Assembly (NCBI GenBank): GCA_026392015.1
Contig: JAPLCW010000174.1
Location: 1-64,000, forward strand
Source of the DNA: Candidatus Auribacterota bacterium
GTDB taxonomy: Bacteria > Auribacterota > Tritonobacteria > UBA1439
Direction: 5' to 3'
Length of the DNA stretch: 64,000 nt
Shown here: positions 1-60,203 of the stretch, in pieces
How positions within the stretch are numbered: position 1 is the first letter of the stretch
Layout of the letters: the number at the start of each line of letters is the position of its first letter
The notes under the pieces: model-generated
Told to the model about the DNA's origin: nothing
The model's input: the letters and a program-made list of their open reading frames with translations, nothing else
Database searches by the model: none
Program-made: the position numbers and the translations under genes

Positions 1-146
1 GCGCCTCAGGCGCAAGGAGGTGAACCAGCAACTAAACCGGTTGACAGAGACCCGAAAAAGGAGCATAAACAACCAAGGTCAGGCGGCACTTTATAGTGTA
101 ATTCCATGACCTTTGGTCTCATTGTTCCAGAAACGGCCCGCTGCCG

Positions 147-968
147 ATGAAAAGGAAAGACGGCAGTGTCTTTTACGCGGATATAAGCACGTCGCAGATA
201 ACCTTATTCGGCAGAAAACATCTTATGGGAATTTTCCGGGATATCACCGAGCGCATGCAGGCAGAATCCGCTCGTATGGAAACGATAAAGGCAAAATCAG
301 ATTTTACCGGCATGGTTTCCCACGAATTAAGAACACCCCTCGCCGCTATCAAGGAAGGTGTCTCTGTGGTTTTAGATAAAATAGTCGGAAGCATTAACGA
401 CGAGCAGAAAAAATATCTGGAAATCACCCAAAAGAACGTGGACAGGCTGCATAGGTTGATAAACGGAATTTTAGATTTTCAGAAGCTCGAATCCGGAAAA
501 ATGGAATTTAAGATGGCAGACAATGATATGAATGAAATAGTTACGGATATACAGAGTACAATGATGATCTTATTCAGGAAGAAGGGTTTGGTTTTCGAGC
601 TTCAGCTCTGCGACAATCTTCCCCAAGTGAAGTTCGATAGGGATAAAATTATTCAAGTTTTAACAAATTTGACAAATAACGCCCTTAAATGTACCGACAA
701 GGGCGGTATTACGATTGGTACCAGGAGAGGAGATAATTTTATTCAAGTTATGGTTAAAGATACGGGTATAGGAATTAAAAAAGAAAATATGCAAAAACTA
801 TTCAAAGAATTCACGCAATTACAGAGAAAGGTAGGCGGTACAGGCCTGGGCCTTTCCATTTGCAGGAAACTAATAGAAGCGCATAAAGGAAGAATTTGGG
901 CAGAGTCGGAATTTGGCAGAGGCACAGCTTTTTATTTTACCTTGCCCATCGAAGAACGGAGAGCATGA
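147..968 (+). CDS. Sensor histidine kinase catalytic core (HisKA + HATPase_c); N-terminally truncated paralog of the kinase at 3082-6531
   Basis: H-box MVSHELRTPL and HATPase G-boxes (DTGIGI, GGTGLGLSI) are present and the C-terminal half aligns with the HK at 3082-6531. The first ~35 aa look like the C-terminal half of a PAS domain (RKDGSVFYADIS...FRDITER). In-frame stops lie at 21-23, 33-35, 42-44, 66-68 and 99-101 upstream, so the sensor part is missing or frameshifted. Confidence 0.75.
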   Translation: MKRKDGSVFYADISTSQITLFGRKHLMGIFRDITERMQAESARMETIKAKSDFTGMVSHELRTPLAAIKEGVSVVLDKIVGSINDEQKKYLEITQKNVDRLHRLINGILDFQKLESGKMEFKMADNDMNEIVTDIQSTMMILFRKKGLVFELQLCDNLPQVKFDRDKIIQVLTNLTNNALKCTDKGGITIGTRRGDNFIQVMVKDTGIGIKKENMQKLFKEFTQLQRKVGGTGLGLSICRKLIEAHKGRIWAESEFGRGTAFYFTLPIEERRA

Positions 969-1009
969 CCCTCCAAAATTTTTCCATTCATTTTATTTAG
1001 GCAAAAGAA

Positions 1010-1273
1010 ATGTACTATGTGTATATTTTGCAAAGTGAACGGGACAACAATTTATATATAGGTTATACAAATAATCTTAAAGAGCGTATTTTATTGCATA
1101 ATACCGGTAAAGTTTTTTCAACAAAAAATAGAACACCACTTCAGTTGATTTACTATGAGGCATTTATGGATAAAAAAGATGCATCTGAGAGAGAAAAATG
1201 GCTAAAAACAGGATGGGGGCATAATCAAATCAGAAAAATTTTAAGCAATTACTTAAATAATAAAAATTTATAG
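1010..1273 (+). CDS. Small GIY-YIG nuclease-superfamily protein (UPF0213/YhbQ-like)
   Basis: N-terminal YVYILQS...LYIGYTNNLKERILLHN matches the GIY-YIG motif. The gene is conspicuously AT-rich compared with its neighbours. It sits between a kinase and its response regulator. Confidence 0.65.
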   Translation: MYYVYILQSERDNNLYIGYTNNLKERILLHNTGKVFSTKNRTPLQLIYYEAFMDKKDASEREKWLKTGWGHNQIRKILSNYLNNKNL

Positions 1274-1295
1274 GTGAAAAATTTAGGAGGGTGCT

Positions 1296-1676
1296 ATGGC
1301 AAAAAAGATTCTTGTTGTTGATGATGAGCCGAACATTATGGATGTTGCAACAGTCAGATTGAAGCGCCTGGGGTATGAAATCATATCTGCCTTTGATGCC
1401 GAGAAGGCGCTGACTTTTCTGCAAAATGTTACTCCCGATTTAATATTACTGGATCTGCTCTTACCCCAAATGCAGGGGGATGAACTTTGTAAAAAGCTGA
1501 AATCTGATGACAAATTCAAACATATCCCCATTATCATATTTACCGCCAGTGCCATCCGCACCAGCCTTCCTGAAAAGATAAAAGAAATGGGCGCAGATGA
1601 TTGCATAATGAAACCATTTGACCCGGAAGAATTATTAGGAAAGGTGACGGGAAAGGTGAATAAATTTATACGATAG
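1296..1676 (+). CDS. Single-domain response regulator (CheY-like receiver)
   Basis: Acidic pocket VVDDE and phospho-acceptor D in LILLDLLLP; T and K motifs (IIIFTAS, MKPF). RBS AGGAGG lies upstream. It is 70% similar to the regulator at 6506-6868. Confidence 0.85.
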   Translation: MAKKILVVDDEPNIMDVATVRLKRLGYEIISAFDAEKALTFLQNVTPDLILLDLLLPQMQGDELCKKLKSDDKFKHIPIIIFTASAIRTSLPEKIKEMGADDCIMKPFDPEELLGKVTGKVNKFIR

Positions 1677-1738
1677 CGGATCCAAGATAATAATTTTGAT
1701 GAACATCAGAAGCACATTGGACAACAGGGAACAACTGT

Positions 1739-3085
1739 ATGTGCTCAAAGAAGATTTTCTTTTATCCCGCTGTGGCTTTTGCGGTTTTGCTGGTATTCGC
1801 ATTTGCCCTATCTCTTGTTGAGAAATCTCCTGCTTTCCCTGCACACCACCCCACCATCAAAGTCGGAATACTCCATTCCCTCACCGGCACAATGGCCATC
1901 AGTGAGAAATCGGTAGCGGATGCCACTTTGCTCGCGCTGGAAGAGATCAACAAAACAGGCGGTGTGCTGGGAATGAAGATAGAACCTGTGATCGCCGATG
2001 GGAAATCAGACCCGGATGTCTTTCAAAAAGAGGCCGAGCGGCTTATTGCTAAAGAGAACGTGAAGGTCATTTTCGGATGCTGGACATCGGCCAGCCGCAA
2101 GGCGGTCAAAGCCATCGTTGAGAAATACAATTCTCTCCTATTCTATCCAGTCCAATATGAAGGGTTGGAACAGTCCCCGAATATCGTATATATGGGAGCG
2201 GCGCCCAACCAGCAGATCATTCCCGCGGTTAAATGGTCCTGCGATAATTTGGGCAAAAGCTTTTTCCTGGTCGGATCGGATTATGTATTTCCCAGGGTGG
2301 CCAATGAAATAGCGAAGGATATCATTGGCCTTGTGGGGGGCAAGGTTGTCGGGGAGGAATACGTCCCGCTGGGCGGCAAGGATTTTAACGGCATCGCGAG
2401 GAAGATAAAGGAAACAAAACCCGAAGTCATTTTGAACACCATTAACGGCGACAGCAATATCGCTTTCCTGATGGCATTGCATGAGGCGGAAGTCCCGTCC
2501 GCGAAAGCGCAGATCATGTCGCTCAGCATGGCTGAAAATGAATTACAGAGCTTTAAGGATTATTTTCAGAAACATTATCCGCAGGAGGCGGGTCATTTTA
2601 TTGAAAAGCACCTCGCCGGAATGTACGCCTGCTGGAACTATTTTGAAACGATCGACAACCCCTTGAATCTGGATTTTATCGCGAAATTCAGGCAACAGTA
2701 CGGCAAAAACTATAAGGTGACCGATCCCATGGAGGCCGCCTATTTTGGGGTGTATCTATGGAGCAAGGCCGTCAATGAGTGCAAAGACGTTGATAATCCT
2801 GAAAATATCCTGAATTATCTGGGCGATATAAGCATTCCGGCCCCCGAAGGCATTATCACCATTGCGGATAATAATCATGCGCGGAAAACCGTCCGCATCG
2901 GCCGGCTCAATGAGAGAGGGGACTTTGATATTATCTGGAGTTCAAAGAACCCCGTGGATCCGGTTCCATATCCTTCTTTCAGGGACAAAACCTCCTGGGA
3001 ACATTTTCTTAATGAACTTTATCAAAAATGGAACGGCCACTGGAGCAGTATCGCGGAGCCATTTGATTCCGGAGGGAGCCGATGA
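1739..3085 (+). CDS. Periplasmic substrate-binding protein, type-1 PBP fold (UrtA/AmiC/Liv family)
   Basis: Signal peptide, then IKVGILHSLTGTMAISE (UrtA-like motif) and the GCWTSASRKAV region. Its stop overlaps the downstream kinase start (ATGA). Confidence 0.75.
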   Translation: MCSKKIFFYPAVAFAVLLVFAFALSLVEKSPAFPAHHPTIKVGILHSLTGTMAISEKSVADATLLALEEINKTGGVLGMKIEPVIADGKSDPDVFQKEAERLIAKENVKVIFGCWTSASRKAVKAIVEKYNSLLFYPVQYEGLEQSPNIVYMGAAPNQQIIPAVKWSCDNLGKSFFLVGSDYVFPRVANEIAKDIIGLVGGKVVGEEYVPLGGKDFNGIARKIKETKPEVILNTINGDSNIAFLMALHEAEVPSAKAQIMSLSMAENELQSFKDYFQKHYPQEAGHFIEKHLAGMYACWNYFETIDNPLNLDFIAKFRQQYGKNYKVTDPMEAAYFGVYLWSKAVNECKDVDNPENILNYLGDISIPAPEGIITIADNNHARKTVRIGRLNERGDFDIIWSSKNPVDPVPYPSFRDKTSWEHFLNELYQKWNGHWSSIAEPFDSGGSR

Positions 3086-6000
3086 AACCCCCGGGAAAAT
3101 CAAAACTCTCCAGAAGAATATTCGTATATTTCTTTATCGTCTCGGCGCTGCCCTTGTTATTCATGGCCATTGCCAGCTATCATGTCTTCTCCCGGTCACT
3201 GGAGGAGCACATTCGCAACAAGCTGATCGCTATCAGTGACGGCCGGCAGGCGGCTCTTAAACAAACCATATACGGCATATCAAGGTTTATCACTGAAAGG
3301 GCCTCGGGCCCCACGCCCGTCACGGGATTTGAAAAATTTACCGCGGCATTTGCATCATCCGGGATTCAAAGTGAAGAACATAAAGCCCTTGATTCACATT
3401 ATAGGGAAGCGTTCCAGAGATATTTTGACGTAAACGATTATATCTACGACATGCTTTTTGTTTCAAATGAGGGAAATGTCATATTTTCGATGAAGCATGA
3501 AAGCGATTTCGGACAAAACATCAACAGCCCTCTTTTGAAAACCACGGCACTTTTCGGACTCGTGAACACCGTGAATACCGTGTTAAGCACCTCCTTTTCT
3601 GATTTTGACTTTTACCCACCGTCCCATCAAGCCGCTCTATTCGCCGCCACTCCTGCCTTTGGGGAAGGCAAATTGCTCGGTGTGATGGTACTTCAGATCA
3701 AGCCTGAAATATTTTATGCATTCGCGCAAAATTACGTCGGGTTGCCTAAAAGCGGAGAAATCACTTTCGCAAAACGCGTCGGAGATGAAGTTGTATATAC
3801 CACACCACTTCGCTTTAAACCCGATGCCGCGCTCAACTACAAGATCAAGATCGGCTCTCACATCGCCGTTCCCATGCAGAAAGCTGTCAGCGGAGAAACA
3901 GGTATCGGGTTTTCAACGGATTACCGGGGGAAAAGCGTTCTCGCCAGATGGCAATATATCCCGCAGTTGCACTGGGGCATGATCGTTAAGGTAGATACAG
4001 ATGAGGTATTCCGATCAATTCATCAGTTAAGAAATTTATATATAATTCTTTTTTGCATTCTGATAGGCCTTATTTTAATGGCCTCTTTTGTGGTCGCCCG
4101 CACTATCTGCGGTCCCATCGAAACGGTCCGCGACGGCCTGAAGATAATCGGAGGCGGCAACCTTGGCCATAGAATCAATATTGCGCGCAATGACGAGATC
4201 GGGGAGCTGGCGGAGGACGTGGGTGCGATGGCGGAAAATTTGCAGCACACGACCGCTTCCATAGATAAACTCAACAAAGAAATCACCCAGCGCAAGAAAG
4301 TCGAGGAGGCGCTTCAAGAAAGCGAGCGCACGGTTCGGGCGATCCTTGACCAGACGTTCCAGTTCATCGGACTGATGACCGTTGACGGAGTCCTAATAGA
4401 CGCAAACAAGGCGGCATTAAAATTTGCCGGGATCGAGGAATCACAGGTTTTGAACAAGCCTTTTTGGGAAACGCCCTGGTGGACACACTCAGCGGAATTG
4501 CAGAATAAACTGCGCGACGCCGTCAAGAAAGTGGCACGGGGGGAATTTATACGTTTTGAGGCGACACACATGTTGAAAGGCGGCGGCCTTCATTATGTCG
4601 ATTTTTCACTTAAACCGGTCAAGGATGACGCAGGCACCGTCATCTTTATGATCCCGGAAGGCCGCGATATTACCGACCGCAAAAAAGTGGAAGAGAGGCT
4701 GCGCAGCAGCGAGGCGTGGCTTTCCGTCACTCTCAAGAGCATCGGCGACGCGGTTATCGCCACCGATACAAAAGGCCGTATCACGTTTGTTAATCCTGTC
4801 GCCTCGCGGTTGACCGGCTGGAGTCAGGAAGAAGCGACGGGCATGCCGCTCAAAGAGGTCTTTCACATTGTCAACGAAGAGACAGGCGCGCCCGTTGAAA
4901 ATCCGGCGACCCGGGTACTGAAAGAAGGCGTGGTTGTCGGGCTTGGGAACCATACGATATTGTTAGCCAAGAACGGAACAAGGTGCCCGATCGATGACAG
5001 CGCCGCGCCTATCATGGATGACGGACAGATCATCGGAGTGGTCTTGATTTTCCGCGATATCACTGAGCGCAGGAGGGCGGAAGAAAAGATCGCGCGCGCG
5101 AACAGGGAATGGGCGAATACGTTCGATTCCATATCGGATTTTGTCTTCATCCTAAATAACGACAGCACCATTGCAAAAGTGAACAGGTCTTTTCTCGACG
5201 TCCTCCATCTGGAAGAAAAGGATGTCGTGGGCAAGAAGTGCTACGAAATTGTTCACAAGACAACAACGCCATGGCCGGAATGTCCACATCAAAAAACACT
5301 GCTCAATAGAAAGCCGCAGACGGAAGAGGTGGACGACCCGGGAGTGGGCCTGCCGCTTCAAGTCAGCGTTTCGCCGATCTTCGACGAGCAAGGCGAATTG
5401 TTAGGCTCGGTCCATATCGCCAGGGATATCAGCAGCACGAGAAAAGCGGACGCGGCACTGAGGGAATCCGAAGAGAAATACCGCAGTCTTGTGGAAAACA
5501 TGATGGACGTAATATACGCCATGGACGCCGAGGGGAAAGTGACGGCCATCAACCAGGCGGTAAAGACTAACTACGGCTACGAACCGGAGGAGGTTCTCGG
5601 CAGGAATTTTTTGGAGTTCCACAAAAAGGAAGTTTATGCCCCGGTAGTGGAAAATTTCCACCATATACTTAAGGGAGAAAAGGTTCTCGGCGAGGCCATT
5701 ATTATTGATAAACAGGGGCTGGAACATAACGTTGAATTCTCCGGGGTGCCAATAGTAAGAGATGGAATAGTCGCCGGCGTGAGAGGTATGATGAGAGATG
5801 TCACCGAACGCAAGAAGATATTGGAGCAGAAAAACAATTTTATGAATATGGTATCTCATGAGCTGAGAACGCCTTTAACTTCCATTAAGGAGGGTATTTC
5901 TCTCGTCGCGGAAGGCATCGCGGGACCTATCAACCCGCAACAAAAAGAGTTGTTGGATATCGGGAAACAAAACATCGACAGGCTCTCGCGATTGATAAAC

Positions 6001-6531
6001 CAAGTTCTGGATTTTCAGGCAATCGACTCTGGCAGTATGCAATTCAGCTTCAGGGAAAATGACATAAATCGTGCGGTCAAGGAAGCCCGCGCATCTCTGC
6101 TGTCGCTCGCAACGAAAAAAGGAATACAGCTCAATCTCGCGCTTGATGAGAGCCTGCCCCTCATTAAATTTGATAAGGATAAAATCCTGGGGGTATTGAT
6201 CAATCTGCTCAACAATGCCCTGAAATTCACGGAAAAAGGAAGCATCACGATCACTACCGAACGCGGAGACAATATCATTAAAGTCTCCATTAAAGACACC
6301 GGTATCGGAATCAAAGAAGAGGACATGCCCAAGCTGTTCCAGCGTTTTTCTCAGGTAAAAAGAAAAGCCGGCGGGTCGGGATTAGGGCTCGCCATTTCCA
6401 AAGAGATCATAGAGGCCCACAACGGCAAGATAGGGGCGAAATCGGAGTTCGGCAAGGGAACGACGCTTCATTTTATCCTGCCGATCAAAGAGAGAAGGCT
6501 GCACTATGAAGAAAACAATCCTGATAGTTGA
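3082..6531 (+). CDS. Multi-sensor histidine kinase: TM, periplasmic sensor (~270 aa), TM, HAMP, coiled coil, 4 PAS domains, HisKA, HATPase_c
   Basis: Two hydrophobic segments flank a periplasmic domain. HAMP (GELAEDVGAMAENL). Four PAS-like blocks. The third PAS carries KCYEIVHKTTTPWPECPHQ. H-box MVSHELRTPL and HATPase G1/G2 boxes. Confidence 0.9.
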   Translation: MKPPGKSKLSRRIFVYFFIVSALPLLFMAIASYHVFSRSLEEHIRNKLIAISDGRQAALKQTIYGISRFITERASGPTPVTGFEKFTAAFASSGIQSEEHKALDSHYREAFQRYFDVNDYIYDMLFVSNEGNVIFSMKHESDFGQNINSPLLKTTALFGLVNTVNTVLSTSFSDFDFYPPSHQAALFAATPAFGEGKLLGVMVLQIKPEIFYAFAQNYVGLPKSGEITFAKRVGDEVVYTTPLRFKPDAALNYKIKIGSHIAVPMQKAVSGETGIGFSTDYRGKSVLARWQYIPQLHWGMIVKVDTDEVFRSIHQLRNLYIILFCILIGLILMASFVVARTICGPIETVRDGLKIIGGGNLGHRINIARNDEIGELAEDVGAMAENLQHTTASIDKLNKEITQRKKVEEALQESERTVRAILDQTFQFIGLMTVDGVLIDANKAALKFAGIEESQVLNKPFWETPWWTHSAELQNKLRDAVKKVARGEFIRFEATHMLKGGGLHYVDFSLKPVKDDAGTVIFMIPEGRDITDRKKVEERLRSSEAWLSVTLKSIGDAVIATDTKGRITFVNPVASRLTGWSQEEATGMPLKEVFHIVNEETGAPVENPATRVLKEGVVVGLGNHTILLAKNGTRCPIDDSAAPIMDDGQIIGVVLIFRDITERRRAEEKIARANREWANTFDSISDFVFILNNDSTIAKVNRSFLDVLHLEEKDVVGKKCYEIVHKTTTPWPECPHQKTLLNRKPQTEEVDDPGVGLPLQVSVSPIFDEQGELLGSVHIARDISSTRKADAALRESEEKYRSLVENMMDVIYAMDAEGKVTAINQAVKTNYGYEPEEVLGRNFLEFHKKEVYAPVVENFHHILKGEKVLGEAIIIDKQGLEHNVEFSGVPIVRDGIVAGVRGMMRDVTERKKILEQKNNFMNMVSHELRTPLTSIKEGISLVAEGIAGPINPQQKELLDIGKQNIDRLSRLINQVLDFQAIDSGSMQFSFRENDINRAVKEARASLLSLATKKGIQLNLALDESLPLIKFDKDKILGVLINLLNNALKFTEKGSITITTERGDNIIKVSIKDTGIGIKEEDMPKLFQRFSQVKRKAGGSGLGLAISKEIIEAHNGKIGAKSEFGKGTTLHFILPIKERRLHYEENNPDS

Positions 6532-6868
6532 TGATGAGCGTGATGTGCTCTCCGTTCTGAAACTGAGATTGCAGAGTTCGGGCTATAGGATTTTAGTCGC
6601 GGAGAGTGCCGAAGAGGCGCTTGACATACTCAAGAAAAATACCCCGGACCTGATATTTATGGATCTGCTCTTGCCCAAAATGCAAGGAGTGGAAGTGTGC
6701 AAAAGGTTAAAATCGGACGACAAATTTCGGCACATACCCATTATTCTCTTTACCGCAAGCACTATGGACGTCGCGGAAAAGGTCAAGGAAGCACATGCGG
6801 ATGACTATCTGCTGAAACCTTTTGAACCGGAAGCCCTGTTATCCAAGATCAGGAAGTTTATAGGTTGA
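6506..6868 (+). CDS. Single-domain response regulator (CheY-like), paralog of 1296-1676
   Basis: REC motifs (IVDDE, FMDLLLP, ILFTAS, LLKPF). It overlaps the kinase 3' end by 26 nt. Confidence 0.85.
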   Translation: MKKTILIVDDERDVLSVLKLRLQSSGYRILVAESAEEALDILKKNTPDLIFMDLLLPKMQGVEVCKRLKSDDKFRHIPIILFTASTMDVAEKVKEAHADDYLLKPFEPEALLSKIRKFIG

Positions 6869-7276
6869 TTCATCAACCGGAACAGAAATCATACACGCTT
6901 TGCCCCCGATCGCCGGTGACCTGAACGCGCCGCCGGGCGGGAAGAAGCATTCGGGAAAGGAGAAATATAAATTGTGACAGACCGGCTCGATATGCATGGA
7001 AAGTCGGGCAGGGCAGGGAACATCTGTCTTTGTGCACCTGCGGAAAGAAAGAAAAATAAGGATAAGGCAAGGCCTCGGTCTCAGGGAGGCATGTCACTCC
7101 CGCCCCTGTATAACTGAGAATGTGCGAAAAAATAAGATTCCTGAACTTGGTTATTTGCATATCTATTGTGGGGGCTTGATTTATCAAGCCCTTTAGGGAG
7201 GGTCGGATGAATCCGACCCCTACAGCAATGCGCAAAACTATTTTTTTTCCACACCTTCTGAGGGGATACAGGATAA

Positions 7277-7537
7277 GTGAACAGAGCCAATAAACGCTGG
7301 CAGGTCTACATCATCCAATGCAAGGACGGGACTCTCTACACCGGCGTCACCAATAATCTCGCGCATCGCATCGATGCCCACAATTGTGGCAAGGGCTGCC
7401 GCTACACGAAATGCAGGCGGCCCGTGAAGCTGCTCCATGCCGCATCGTTCCCCGATAAATCAGCGGCTATGCGGCGCGAAGCAGAGATCAAGAAATGGAG
7501 CAGGAGAGAAAAGGAGGAGTTTCTGGGGAAGAAGTAA
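7277..7537 (+). CDS. Small GIY-YIG nuclease-superfamily protein
   Basis: WQVYIIQCKDGTLYTGVTNNLAHRIDAHN matches the GIY-YIG motif. Second copy of this family, again next to a kinase / response-regulator pair. Confidence 0.6.
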   Translation: MNRANKRWQVYIIQCKDGTLYTGVTNNLAHRIDAHNCGKGCRYTKCRRPVKLLHAASFPDKSAAMRREAEIKKWSRREKEEFLGKK

Positions 7538-7987
7538 CAATGTTTTTCTCCGGAGTTAACGCTGTCCCATTACCCCTAATCCCTAACTACTGACTACTAA
7601 CTACTGTTTCCCAGCTGAGACTTTAGTCGAAACTTGTAGCCGAGACTTTAGTCTCGGAGGAGACAGGCGGAATCCCTTATCGCATATTCATCACTGCTAT
7701 TGCCTATCGCTTCTCCCAGGCGAAGCTTCGCCAGTACACTGTTAAAGTAGTTTTTGCTGATATAAATGCCGTAAGCATTATGTCATTGCGAGGATCCCGC
7801 CGAGGCGGGAGACGAAGCAATCTTTTTTTATCTTTTAGCAACGAGATTGCTGCGCCCTTTGGGCTCGCAATGACAGGTTACCTCGTAAGAATTAACTTAA
7901 CAGTGTACTAGCTACTGCAGTACGATTTTCCCGCTCGCCTGAGAAACGCGTCTTCGCGGCCTTTGATCAACTTGCTTCGTAACTGCT

Positions 7988-8125
7988 CTTGAGCCAGAAT
8001 TCAGAAGACAGAATACAGAATTCAGGAGACAGGAGATAAACGTTTCCTTGAAATGCCGCTATTCTTAATTCTGGATTCTGTATTCTGTCTTTTCCATTCT
8101 GGCTCCTGACTTCTGACTACCTGAG
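7988..8125. repeat. MITE-like palindromic element, copy A
   Basis: Arms are made of degenerate CAGAATN / CAGGAGN heptamers around a core AGGAGATAAACGTTTCCTTGAAATG. The same element occurs inverted at ~34216-34372 and ~40478-40650. Confidence 0.8.
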
Positions 8126-8241
8126 TAGTTACCTTGCTTCTATTGAAAGCCCGGGATACTCGGGTGAAAAAGCTATTGCGTGAGGTGATGCTTCTGCTAC
8201 AATGAAACCGCATGAAAGAAGCGGGCAGGAGGGCATGAATA

Positions 8242-9393
8242 ATGAACTACAGGGATATTCTGGATCTAGCCTGTGCCGGTATCGGGGCGGTTGCTTTTAT
8301 TCTTCTCCTCGTGAAGCGCAGCGTGAAGGTTATCGAGCGCCGCGTCGCTCTGACTCTCCTCTCCATTCTCCTCACCACGCTTGCCTACCTTCTCTACAGC
8401 GGTTACCAGTACCGGGTCTCCCCTGATTTGCTGGCGTCGCTCATGATCATCGAACTTGGGGTTTTCGCCCGAATCTACGATTCGTACAGAACCTTCCGTA
8501 GCCTCTCGGGAACGCTGCGGAATCTCGGCAATATCTATATCTTTGCGGGCGTCGTCTGCCTGCTCTCACGGAGCACAGGTTTCTCCCCGCTCCTCTGGGC
8601 GCTCCCTGTAATCCTCTTCTCGCTCGGCTATTTCTTCATGAAGAAGAGAAGGGGACTCGGAAACCTCTGCAAGGGCCTGGGAGTGCTCATATCCGTCGCC
8701 TTTGTCGCCTCAATCCTCTACGACGCGCGCGCCGGGGCAATACCCGGGCAAGGCGCAGCGCTTCTCCGGGGACACCTGCTTCCAGACATTATGAATCCTT
8801 CCTTCGTTGAGGAGCTCAACGCACTTAACAAGAAATTATCCGTCGCAGACGCTGAAAAGGCGCGCCTCTCCGAGAAACTCATCCTAACGAAAAAGGAATC
8901 CGAGAAGCTGACACAAGAGAAGAATGCGATTGAGGGGAAACTCGCGGAGATGGGCAAGGCGCGCGCGAATGAATCCTCTGAGCGGGAGACGCTCAAGACC
9001 GAGAAACAGAAGCTCCAGGAGCTCCTCAATAAAGAGACGGCAGCCAGGAACGATGCCAAGCATAAACTCGAGGAAGCAAAGGTGGCGGGCAAAGAAGGCT
9101 TCACCGCGATTGAAGAGAAACTGAAGCTCGCGGCTGACAACCTCAAGAAGGTGATGGAAGAGAAAACAGCCCTCACCGCGGAACTTCAGTCCCTCAGGGC
9201 CGCCTCACCGATGGCAACGCCCGGCTCTCAATCTGTAGATGTGCAAGAGATGAAGAAGAGACTCGCGGACAGGGAAGGAGAGCTTGCCGCCGTCACCCTG
9301 GAGAGAGATAGATTAAAGAAGATTGTCGGAAAGATCGAAGACGCACTGCCGACCGGGATGCCCTCGCCACAAGTGCCGGGGGCGGGGAACTGA
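8242..9393 (+). CDS. Membrane-anchored protein with long C-terminal coiled coil (hypothetical)
   Basis: 4-5 N-terminal hydrophobic helices, then K/E-rich heptad-like sequence (LSEKLILTKKESEKLTQEKNAIEGKLAEMGK...). No recognised catalytic motif. Confidence 0.5.
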   Translation: MNYRDILDLACAGIGAVAFILLLVKRSVKVIERRVALTLLSILLTTLAYLLYSGYQYRVSPDLLASLMIIELGVFARIYDSYRTFRSLSGTLRNLGNIYIFAGVVCLLSRSTGFSPLLWALPVILFSLGYFFMKKRRGLGNLCKGLGVLISVAFVASILYDARAGAIPGQGAALLRGHLLPDIMNPSFVEELNALNKKLSVADAEKARLSEKLILTKKESEKLTQEKNAIEGKLAEMGKARANESSERETLKTEKQKLQELLNKETAARNDAKHKLEEAKVAGKEGFTAIEEKLKLAADNLKKVMEEKTALTAELQSLRAASPMATPGSQSVDVQEMKKRLADREGELAAVTLERDRLKKIVGKIEDALPTGMPSPQVPGAGN

Positions 9394-17723: not shown

Positions 17724-17857
17724 TATTCTGTATTCTGTATTCTGTATTCTGTATTCTGTATTCTGTATTCTGTATTCTGTATTCTGTATTCTGTATTCTG
17801 TATTCTGTATTCTGTATTCTGTATTCTGTATTCTGTATTCTGTATTCTGTATTCTGT
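17724..17857. repeat. Perfect heptanucleotide tandem tract (TATTCTG)n, ~19 copies
   Basis: Read directly in the sequence. It lies in the intergenic region between the divergent GT2 (minus) and GT39-like (plus) genes. Confidence 0.9.
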
Positions 17858-19696: not shown

Positions 19697-20124
19697 ATAG
19701 GGAGATGAATAAAAGAGCTATTTTAACAGCCCACCATATGTAACCGCAGATTACGCGCCTGCCTGCCGGCAGGGATTGGGCGGATTACACAATGCGAATC
19801 CGCGTAATCCGCGGTTAGAACATTAGGTTCATGTCCAAAAAAGTTGCCCATTCATACGAGGAGAGTAGTCATCCCCGCGAAAGCGGGGATCCAGAAATGC
19901 AGCTTTCTAAGCTGGATTCCTGCTTCGCATAATAGAGGGATTACGCGAGGTGATGTCAGCGGGGTGCCGGTGCAAAAAAGTATAAAATCATACAATCGCA
20001 TATTTCCAGTTGACTTCCGGAAGCGGATAGCGTATCTTGAGCGGGTTTGCTGGGCATATATCTGCCGAGTCAACTCGTTCAGGCGCCGGCGCGTTGTTAC
20101 GGTGCCAGCGAAAGGGGAGACATT

Positions 20125-40477: not shown

Positions 40478-40650
40478 GTCAGAAGACAGAATCCAGGAGT
40501 CAGAATCCAGAATGGAAAAGCAAGAATACAGAATCCGGAATACAGAATTAAGAATAACGACATTTCAAGGAAACGTTTATCTCCTGTCTCCTGAATTCTG
40601 TATTCTGTCTTCTGAATTCTGGCTCCTGACTCCTGAATTCTGACTCCTGA
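40478..40650. repeat. MITE-like palindromic element, copy C
   Basis: Same core and heptamer arms as copies A and B. Confidence 0.8.
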
Positions 40651-54251: not shown

Positions 54252-54385
54252 GTAAGGGGTCACTTATGGGTGGTACATTGCTGAATATGTCATTCCTGCG
54301 AAAGCAGGAATCCAGGTTTCATAATGGATCCCCGCTTTCGCGGGGATGACAAGCGAAATGGATACCACCCATAAGTGACCCCTTA
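54252..54385. repeat. Palindromic ~135-bp element (family GGGGTCACTTATGG...), copy 1
   Basis: Ends TAAGGGGTCACTTATGGGTGGTA / TACCACCCATAAGTGACCCCTTAC, with inner hairpins GTCATTCCTGCGAAAGCAGGAATCCA and ATCCCCGCTTTCGCGGGGATGAC. A second copy is at 59722-59870. A solo-end copy is at ~11140-11180 and a diverged copy at ~16560-16800. Confidence 0.8.
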
Positions 54386-59706: not shown

Positions 59707-60203
59707 CATGTTTTGTACTAAGGACGTAAGGGGTCACTTATGGGGGGTACATTGCTGAATATGTCATTCCTGCGAAAGCAGGAATCCAGATTTCATAGTG
59801 GATCCCCGCTTTCGCGGGGATGACAAGTGAAAGGGCTACCCCCCAAGACTGACCCATTACCTAAGGACCATCCCCAATTTCGATAAAAATAGCTGCGCAA
59901 AATAGTTTCTCACCACGAAGCACACGAAGGGCATGAAGAAGAGACAGCCTGGGAACCAACGAATTCCACTATGTTATGAGCCAGTCCGTAAGTGTATAGA
60001 CACGTCATTGCGAGGAGCAAGGCGACGAAGCAATCTCTTCTCCTTCTGTCCTTGTGCGACAGGAGATTGCTTCGCTCCACTCGCAATGACTTATTGCAGA
60101 ATCATCGATATTGCAATGGACTGGTTAGTAATTGCCTTCGTGGTGAAACCGCTAAACACAGATGAACACTGAATCACGTGCGACAATCCGTGTTCATCGG
60201 CGT

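Follow-up and report, generated by a model that had tools for sequence, protein, structure and literature searches.

A small GIY-YIG nuclease gene between inverted repeats is a likely miniature mobile element in a truncated two-component operon of a Candidatus Auribacterota bacterium

Introduction

Two histidine kinases, two CheY-like regulators, and two small GIY-YIG genes lie on the same strand of contig JAPLCW010000174.1 (assembly GCA_026392015.1) from a Candidatus Auribacterota bacterium, and this arrangement raises the question of whether it arose by duplication or brought together genes of separate origin, and whether either GIY-YIG gene has moved. An earlier note on this DNA had proposed segmental duplication of a kinase/regulator/GIY-YIG module, followed by decay of the sensor in one copy, with mobility of the GIY-YIG cassette. 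We analyzed a 64-kb window (positions 1 to 64,000 of the contig) and give all coordinates on its forward strand. The genes are referred to herein as kinase 1 (147-968), GIY1 (1010-1273), regulator 1 (1296-1676), kinase 2 (3082-6531), regulator 2 (6506-6868), and GIY2 (7277-7537). Module 1 comprises positions 141-1676, and module 2, which includes a binding protein, a long sensor kinase, and a regulator, comprises positions 1739-6868.

Overall, the evidence makes it likely that two anciently diverged operons are located side by side in this genome, and that the GIY1 unit is a 326-bp miniature mobile element residing in module 1, which is itself truncated and was probably acquired horizontally.

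Results

A 326-bp insertion between kinase 1 and regulator 1

Two related Omnitrophota-type loci, L082 (GCA_028716965.1) and L083, contain a full-length kinase followed one base on by a 122-aa regulator (TGATATG). Aligned to the window, both read ...GAGCATGA directly followed by TATGGC..., and the window has 326 extra bases (969-1294) between the TGA and the TATG. The empty sites come from related genes of other organisms rather than from alleles within a single population; the corresponding empty allele of the window would be ...GAGCATGA joined directly to TATGGCAAAA. The insertion has a GC content of 28.8% and consists of an inverted-repeat arm, a 25-nt spacer, the GIY-YIG open reading frame (ORF), and a second arm. 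Its sole ORF encodes a GIY-YIG domain, and no member of the known transposase classes (DDE, HUH, serine or tyrosine recombinase) was present in the element.

The arms were recovered in an inverted-repeat search. The left arm (ACCCTCCAAAATTTTTC, 968-984) abuts the stop codon of kinase 1 (TGA, 966-968), and the right arm is located at 1276-1292 (GAAAAATTTAGGAGGGT). Each is 17 nt long and they are complementary at 16 of 17 positions (94%), with a pair score of 14 versus a maximum of 11 in 1000 shuffles of the flanks. In minimum free energy and centroid folds alike, computed both as single-stranded DNA (ssDNA) and as RNA, the arm stem closes the whole cassette; the overall folding energy of the cassette is ordinary (z -1.0 and -1.4), and only this closing stem stands out. 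The right arm also places GGAGG 5-6 nt before the ATG of regulator 1, for which it is predicted to serve as the Shine-Dalgarno sequence, while the empty sites have the ribosome-binding site in the last codons of the kinase. The right arm thus gives the regulator a replacement ribosome-binding site, which lets the operon tolerate the insertion. A group I intron or other known RNA around the cassette was considered and rejected, as Rfam searches of positions 1-9000 were empty except for sub-threshold plant-miRNA matches from a downstream hairpin (7987-8110).

Related cassettes at similar junctions

The two closest relatives of GIY1, with 90% and 82% protein identity, are encoded on metagenomic contigs L084 and L085. 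In both, the cassette is located exactly between a HisKA kinase gene and a receiver gene, and its ends are as in the window: T[AG]A, then CCCTCCAAAATTTTT...AAATTTNGGAGGG, then T. In L084 and L085 the insertion is edged by T[AG]A at either end, and in the window by TGA and TGC; such trinucleotides also occur as stop codons and within the arm consensus, TYA-CCC...GGG-TRA.

The cassettes are more similar to each other than the genes surrounding them. The flanking kinases of the window, L084, and L085 are 58-64% identical to one another and the flanking regulators 42-72% (42% between the L084 regulator and regulator 1), and at the nucleotide level identity is 75-84% for the cassettes versus 62-73% for the flanks. 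Synonymous divergence (dS) from the relatives is 0.6 and 0.95 for the GIY-YIG gene, while it is 1.4-2.3 for the 5′ ends of the regulators and saturated for the 3′ ends of the kinases. In each of the three loci, moreover, the GC content of the cassette is ~10 points lower than that of its flanks, and kinase 1 is closer to the empty-site kinases than to those of the occupied sites. The ratio of nonsynonymous to synonymous divergence (dN/dS) of GIY1 against L084 and L085 is ~0.08-0.1, indicating purifying selection. Collectively, these comparisons fit a scenario in which related cassettes arrived independently at similar junctions, with the nuclease kept under selection, and the GIY1 unit very probably is, or was, a mobile insertion. 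One G1-type gene, the clade to which GIY1 belongs (below), was found in the window. The GIY1 cassette was probably carried into this genome as a passenger of module 1, given that its nearest relatives are found in low-GC hosts at junctions of the same type and that its two ends are the only sites in the window with the arm motif.

GIY1 and GIY2 belong to different clades

GIY1 is predicted to be an 87-aa single-domain GIY-YIG nuclease. It scored 61.3 bits against PF01541 (E 1.1e-16) and GIY2 scored 74.1 bits, both above the cutoff of 22.6, while the NCBIfam library returned no useful family for either protein; matches to TIGR01453 (group I intron endonuclease) were weak and far below the cutoff. 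An AlphaFold2 (AF2) model of GIY1 had a mean predicted local distance difference test score (pLDDT) of 93.6, with strands at residues 2-9, 15-20, and 44-52. Foldseek searches with this model placed 1zg2 (UPF0213 protein BH0048) first, followed by the Slx1 nuclease domain, with template modeling (TM) scores of 0.61-0.66, and I-TevI matched more weakly; the profile of the GIY1 family, termed G1 herein, also matched 1zg2 (E 4.5e-9). Residues Y5, R26, H30, N31, E50, and E62 are invariant in the family alignment and Y16 is nearly so, and we take the Tyr, Tyr, Arg, His/Asn, and Glu of this alignment to be the catalytic-type residues of the GIY-YIG fold. GIY1 itself has substitutions at two positions that hardly vary in the family (C19Y and F59S), and it stops early, before the usual ...KNLGG tail, which is still in frame within the right arm.

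We built hidden Markov models (HMMs) of the G1 family, of Ssn-type proteins (seven sequences), and of UPF0213-type proteins, the last from matches found with GIY2 itself. GIY1 scored 164 bits on the G1 model, 46 on the Ssn-type model (on which members score 137-155), and 43 on the UPF0213-type model. GIY2 scored 101 bits on the UPF0213-type model, which derives from its own matches, and 52 and 50 on the Ssn and G1 models. A neighbor-joining tree likewise resolved three clades (G1, Ssn-type, and UPF0213-type), with GIY1 and GIY2 placed apart. The two proteins are nevertheless homologous (45% identity over 66 aa, E 1e-16). GIY2 is 47% identical to Bacillus subtilis YazA, its relatives in a plasmid database adjoin methyltransferase genes, its composition (GC 54.8%, GC at third codon positions 71%) is that of the window (54.8%), and no bracketing repeats were found around it in the inverted-repeat search. 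By these comparisons, GIY2 appears to be an ordinary stand-alone UPF0213/YazA/YhbQ-type gene, outside the mobile-element family, and its position 408 nt downstream of regulator 2 is most simply a coincidence. The proposed mobility of a GIY-YIG cassette is therefore upheld for GIY1, based on empty sites, inverted repeats, low dS, and a GC content (27.7%) that is foreign to the window, and is not upheld for GIY2, with its UPF0213 affiliation and lack of flanking repeats.

The G1 family

Scanning metagenomes with an alignment built from relatives of GIY1 recovered 80 loci, from which 79 genes had complete flanks. Bracketing inverted repeats scoring 11 or more were present around 29 of the 79 genes versus 0 of 395 shuffles. 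Across the family the left arm is 3-60 nt upstream of the ATG, and the final codons and stop of the gene overlap the right arm. Arm types included CCC[T/G]CC[A/T]AAATTTTT, CCCCGTTAGATA, CCCTGTGTAATA, CCCGTGAAATA, and others. Aligned on their outer CCC/GGG, the arms have three C-G pairs that never vary and, beyond these, at least six covarying positions. Pairing of the left arm with a GGAGG in the target was rejected as a general rule, since it holds for type A at kinase/regulator junctions and not for types B and C or for L087.

In many cases the element separates two genes of the same orientation: the stop codon of the first lies within 0-7 nt of the left arm, and the second gene starts a few nt after the right arm. 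Examples include a fourth, unrelated kinase/regulator pair (L089), an ABC ATPase and its permease (L087), ThyX-like and GlyA genes (L096), and pilin-like genes (L126), and 4 of 90 G1 genes are at kinase/regulator junctions. Two G1-type genes each were present in L091, L126, L119, L139, L146, and L155. Pairs of the local arm sequence that contain no ORF adjoin a G1 gene in L099 (816-916 and 960-1026) and L090 (2577-2612, 2628-2661, and 2975-3090); with inner segments of 4-100 nt, they resemble non-autonomous derivatives of the kind formed by miniature inverted-repeat transposable elements (MITEs) or by REPINs (doublets of repetitive extragenic palindromes), or else empty hairpins. Additionally, two database proteins, P0246 (214 aa) and P0287 (205 aa), hold two G1-type stretches, and may be fused tandem elements or gene-calling read-through.

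The family profile matched 17,543 clusters at 50% identity with E≤1e-3, and 3,826 with E≤1e-10. Hosts of the clade are Patescibacteria, Omnitrophota, and related uncultured lineages, and a study of groundwater Patescibacteria listed GIY-YIG domain proteins among the genes donated to other bacteria (PMC12455944). Carriage by phages was considered and rejected, with only one relative found in 2.9 million viral contigs. The G1 units thus appear to constitute a large and apparently undescribed family of miniature mobile elements, in which a gene for a nuclease of ~85 residues is bracketed by inverted repeats. Full-text literature searches, for which coverage is incomplete so that absence of a match is only absence of evidence, did not return a description of the G1 clade or of its mobility.

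Module 1 is probably a truncated fragment of a distinct operon

All seven ORFs were confirmed at their stated coordinates, as was the 26-nt overlap between kinase 2 and regulator 2 (6506-6531). The shared catalytic core of the kinases was also borne out, with 54% identity over 245 aa (E 5e-89), and the regulators are homologous (56% identity, E 7e-47). The Omnitrophota-type regulators of L082 and L083 are closer, with 77-81% identity to regulator 1 (1296-1676), a CheY-like single-domain receiver by Pfam (Response_reg) and BLASTP. The kinases follow the same pattern: the last 180 aa of kinase 1 are 76-79% identical to the L082 and L083 kinases versus 56% to kinase 2, and kinase 2 would rank below all 120 database clusters listed for kinase 1, such that at least 119 clusters are closer. 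Module 1 has a GC content of 41% (kinase 1, 40.6%; regulator 1, 40.7%), resembling the Omnitrophota loci (38-44%) and unlike the window, and GC steps sharply at ~140 and ~1700; kinase 2 is at 49%. No DNA-level repeat joins the two modules, whose likeness is visible at the protein level only, and no further copies of these genes were found in the window.

Since kinase 1 and regulator 1 are far closer to Omnitrophota pairs than to module 2, and have 41% GC in a 55% GC window, the modules are very likely distant members of one two-component family rather than products of a recent duplication. Moreover, because the related pairs read TGA followed by TATG and lack a GIY-YIG gene, no duplicated kinase/regulator/GIY-YIG triple would ever have existed. 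Module 1 is most likely a low-GC, 5′-truncated fragment of an Omnitrophota-type PAS-kinase/regulator operon, and was probably acquired horizontally. An independent Logan assembly (run SRR20698648, contig L001) is 100% identical to the window over 635-7191, ending inside kinase 1 at one side and before GIY2 at the other, where coverage, strain variation, or repeats may have broken it. This contig runs through GIY1 and regulator 1 and across the GC step into the second operon (49% GC), so the low-GC block is truly joined to that operon.

The truncation of kinase 1 (141-968; ORF 147-968, 273 aa) could be placed closely. The kinase retains HisKA (5.8e-18) and HATPase_c (2.3e-28) domains by Pfam, with an SHELRTPL H-box; no Pfam match to a PAS input domain was found, and the final ~40 PAS residues remain. 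Its best relatives are PAS kinases of 441-472 aa with 70-72% identity, several of which are named Candidatus Omnitrophica, and relatives have ~190 more N-terminal residues. Alignments of full-length relatives by tblastn begin at 141 or 153, and DNA identity with L085 starts at ~137-141. ATG 147 stands where relatives have Val or Leu, its start-codon context contains no Shine-Dalgarno sequence, and several stop codons precede it in frame, as the earlier note had observed in describing a kinase that retains half a PAS domain. A missing sensor in another frame found no support, in that tblastn with full-length relatives matched nothing before 141 in any frame of the window. Positions 1-140, in which frames 1 and 2 close at 96 and ~109, have a host-like GC of 51% and no homology to kinase relatives by translation, tblastn, or DNA alignment. 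Thus, kinase 1 appears by these alignments to be truncated inside its PAS domain at ~137-141. Promoter and terminator scans of positions 1-1800 gave no more matches than in shuffles.

Module 2 is intact. It begins with a periplasmic binding protein gene (Peripla_BP_5, 1739-3085) that the earlier note left out, located between the modules, overlapping kinase 2 by 4 nt and forming an operon with it. Kinase 2 (3082-6531) is full length, with 1149 aa and a dCache-HAMP-4xPAS-HisKA-HATPase_c architecture by Pfam, and regulator 2 (6506-6868) is a CheY-like receiver (Response_reg). Two small peculiarities were seen in the genes of the two modules: regulator 1 has an internal duplication, GKVTGKV, near its C-terminus (1620-1676), and kinase 2 runs ~10 codons beyond the stop of its relatives (LPIKERR-LHYEENNPDS, 6470-6540), creating the 26-nt overlap with regulator 2.

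Discussion

Relation to known systems

Single-domain GIY-YIG nucleases with cognate hairpin repeats were first described in 2025. The Ssn proteins, such as SsnA of Neisseria meningitidis, are single-domain GIY-YIG proteins of 94 aa (cd10448, GIY-YIG_unchar_3); hairpin repeats (NTS/SRM) lie on both sides of their genes, and the proteins bind these repeats and cleave the adjoining ssDNA (Chenal et al. 2025, PMC11893778). These repeats co-vary with protein lineage, and the NTS-ssnA-NTS unit was likened by its authors to an insertion sequence, with domestication suggested and mobility left as a hypothesis (PMC11893778). For comparison, we used the gonococcal SsnA orthologue (94 aa, verified by its flanking NTS repeats) and six Ssn-type genes. 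The match of GIY2 in a gonococcal chromosome is a different gene, of UPF0213 type and without NTS repeats.

GIY1 shares several characteristics with this group. It too has a GIY-YIG domain only, in 87 aa, and its gene is flanked by inverted, hairpin-forming repeats with a CCC/GGG stem core, with extra repeat copies near family members. An Ssn-type gene on Azospirillum lipoferum 4B plasmid AZO_p3 (L171, 255218-256081), which has two SRM hairpins on each side, is located inside an operon between sufB and sufC, as G1 genes are at operon junctions. In contrast, GIY1 is 38% identical to gonococcal SsnA and falls in a separate clade, with its placement relative to cd10448 judged by proxy (the seven-protein HMM and the neighbor-joining tree). 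The SRM pattern HGTCWYN(0-2)YYVSBRHN(0-5)WNVSBRGN(0-2)RNCYNB had no matches near GIY1 or GIY2 and none in the 82 loci L084-L165, while it matched the positive controls from Neisseria, Azospirillum, and Aeromonas. Furthermore, a complete hairpin is present on each side of ssn, whereas the G1 gene lies inside the 'loop' of one split hairpin; the G1 hosts are Patescibacteria, Omnitrophota, and similar lineages, while Ssn hosts are mainly Pseudomonadota; and insertion polymorphism is documented here for G1, where the Ssn paper hypothesized mobility only. Hence, GIY1 may be Ssn-like in its working, yet by the available tests it lacks two defining Ssn features, the clade and the SRM.

The window does contain repeats of the Ssn kind. 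Three identical copies of GTCATCCCCGCGAAAGCGGGGATCCA are located at 19868-19893 (+), 54325-54350 (-), and 59799-59824 (-); this sequence conforms to the Ssn-related motif in the literature and differs very little from the repeats on either side of the Ssn-type gene of Azospirillum. An inverted variant, TGTCATTCCTGCGAAAGCAGGAATCCAG (~54285-54312 and ~59759-59786), lies ~10 nt before two of the copies, forming REPIN-like doublets 5.4 kb apart. There is no Ssn-clade gene in the window, and a cognate nuclease of these repeats, if any, would be elsewhere in the genome.

Likenesses to other systems are more partial. REP-associated tyrosine transposases (RAYTs) with their REPINs, and IS200/IS605 elements, also combine a small nuclease gene between inverted palindromic repeats with non-autonomous repeat doublets nearby, and likely share recognition of hairpins in ssDNA. 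Those systems employ an HUH/Y1 transposase with a covalent intermediate and are 700 bp or more in length, unlike the hydrolytic GIY-YIG nuclease and ~300 bp of the G1 element. The UPF0213/YhbQ/YazA proteins (1zg2, 1ywl), of which GIY2 is a member, have the same minimal fold as GIY1, but are often located beside a methyltransferase gene and without bracketing repeats, whereas GIY1 has arms and scores poorly on their model. Earlier work regarded the stand-alone Slx1-like proteins of bacteria as products of repair genes passed on by vertical descent (Dunin-Horkawicz et al. 2006, PMC1564403). Finally, SegA-G and I-TevI resemble G1 in having a GIY-YIG catalytic domain and inserting between genes without disrupting them, and differ in their DNA-binding modules, spread via homologous flanks, phage or intron home, and lack of terminal inverted repeats.

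Weighing alternative origins

The adjacency of the modules, their shared direction, and their homology in all three gene types are what a local segmental duplication would produce, after which one copy would have lost its sensor and had its GIY-YIG gene moved. Such a history is nonetheless highly improbable, with inter-module identity of only 54-56% while Omnitrophota-type kinases and regulators reach 70-79% and 77-81% identity to module 1, with 8-10 GC points separating the modules, with GIY1 and GIY2 in different clades, with empty sites that make GIY1 a later insertion, and with no repeat between the modules in the DNA itself. We assign equally little weight to an artefact, in which the low-GC block would be a chimeric join of an Omnitrophota contig into the Auribacterota bin or assembly: the sharp GC steps and the end of the Logan contig at 635, which leaves the 5′ junction without independent cover, would be expected of one, but the separate assembly of SRR20698648 is identical through GIY1, regulator 1, and the GC step. 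For GIY1, a different account would make it a true, vertically inherited operon member, acting as an effector or partner and lost from other pairs, with its inverted repeat acting in the mRNA as a stem by which translation of nuclease and regulator is adjusted. The four genes placed exactly at kinase/regulator junctions, the stem in the RNA folds, the purifying selection on GIY1, and a right arm that carries the Shine-Dalgarno sequence of the regulator and a left arm that carries its complement are all compatible with this, yet we regard it as unlikely. The dS of the cassette is far under that of its flanking genes, with identities that are incongruent with those of the hosts, and its GC is ~10 points lower in three loci; most family members are in unrelated contexts, such as among pilin, thymidylate/serine, or ABC transporter genes; arms of types B and C do not resemble a Shine-Dalgarno sequence; and some arm pairs enclose no ORF. 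Further, an exact loss leaving TGA joined to TATG would itself be an excision.

Less probable still, though a little more so than duplication, is a homing origin for GIY1: as a free-standing endonuclease gene like those of the Seg/I-TevI type in phages, it would cut empty kinase/regulator junctions and be copied in by double-strand-break repair. Homing would account for an intergenic insertion between conserved genes, for reuse of the same junction type, and for the faint TIGR01453 matches. Against this, GIY1 has a single 87-aa catalytic domain without a DNA-binding module, and I-TevI is structurally more distant from it than Slx1 and UPF0213 are; at 62-73% nucleotide identity, the sequences around the three occupied sites have diverged too far for recombinational copying; terminal inverted repeats and ORF-less mini-copies are foreign to homing genes; and the family is nearly absent from viral contigs. 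A mobile element in an acquired module remains the reading that we prefer, and several points weigh against it. Both the movement and the nuclease activity of GIY1 are read from sequence comparison. Only 37% of family members have strong bracketing repeats, the insertion shows no clear target-site duplication (T[AG]A may be a duplication, part of the arm, or stop codons), and the confinement of the arm motif to the cassette's own ends means that the 64-kb window holds no sign of activity in this genome. The recurrence of G1 genes at kinase/regulator junctions could also mean a functional link. With regard to module 1, its 5′ junction (~141) is not covered by the independent assembly, and the donor phylum is drawn from the names of a few database matches. 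Since a GIY-YIG hydrolase alone is unable to rejoin DNA, transposition of any form would require help from the host.

A possible mechanism and its implications

The miniature mobile element might move as follows. The nuclease would recognize the stem formed by the two arms in ssDNA and cut at its base, and the cut would drive excision and insertion, or copying, with host functions completing these steps. Insertion would occur exactly between the kinase stop and the regulator start, with the right arm re-supplying the ribosome-binding site. Stem recognition and cutting are proposed here by analogy with Ssn, which acts on hairpins, and Slx1, which acts on branched DNA, and we offer this specific single-strand mechanism tentatively, as one that could well prove wrong. 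A broader proposal, which we hold more doubtfully again, is that G1 units are autonomous transposable elements of ~300 bp, moved, along with their ORF-less mini-copies, by a Slx1-like nuclease of ~85 residues together with host repair and preferring operon stop/start junctions, such that they would represent a new class of prokaryotic mobile element, sister to Ssn/NTS.

If autonomous, these would be the smallest such elements known, with transposition chemistry performed by a hydrolytic, structure-guided nuclease, and would provide the first natural evidence of mobility for the whole Ssn/NTS-related group. The window and its relatives bring natural occupied and empty sites to this young field, and the incongruence between cassette and host, together with ORF-less derivatives in a separate large clade, makes the question of mobility directly testable. 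The arm/nuclease pairs would also extend the range of enzymes available for programmable cutting of ssDNA. The locus carries two warnings for genome annotation: adjacent homologous two-component modules need not be duplications, and small genes labeled 'GIY-YIG nuclease family protein' in candidate phyla need not be repair genes.

Other features of the window

Downstream of GIY2, a 700-bp gene-free stretch before the next ORF contains nested inverted repeats, at 7730-7755/7887-7912 (26 nt, 81%) and 7781-7792/7864-7875 (12 nt, perfect). An ORF of 383 aa follows at 8242-9393 (+), without a Pfam match, in which the N-terminal half is membrane-like and the C-terminal half is rich in Lys and Glu and coiled-coil-like. 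The same intergenic region holds a hairpin at ~7987-8110 (7991-8105) with 35-nt arms that are 89% complementary (z -5.4 as ssDNA). A 31-mer of this hairpin, CAGAATTCAGAAGACAGAATACAGAATTCAG, recurs exactly at 40591-40621 (-), and a tandem (CAGAATA)n array is located at 17728-17856, which together with the hairpin and the 31-mer suggests a heptamer-based repeat family.

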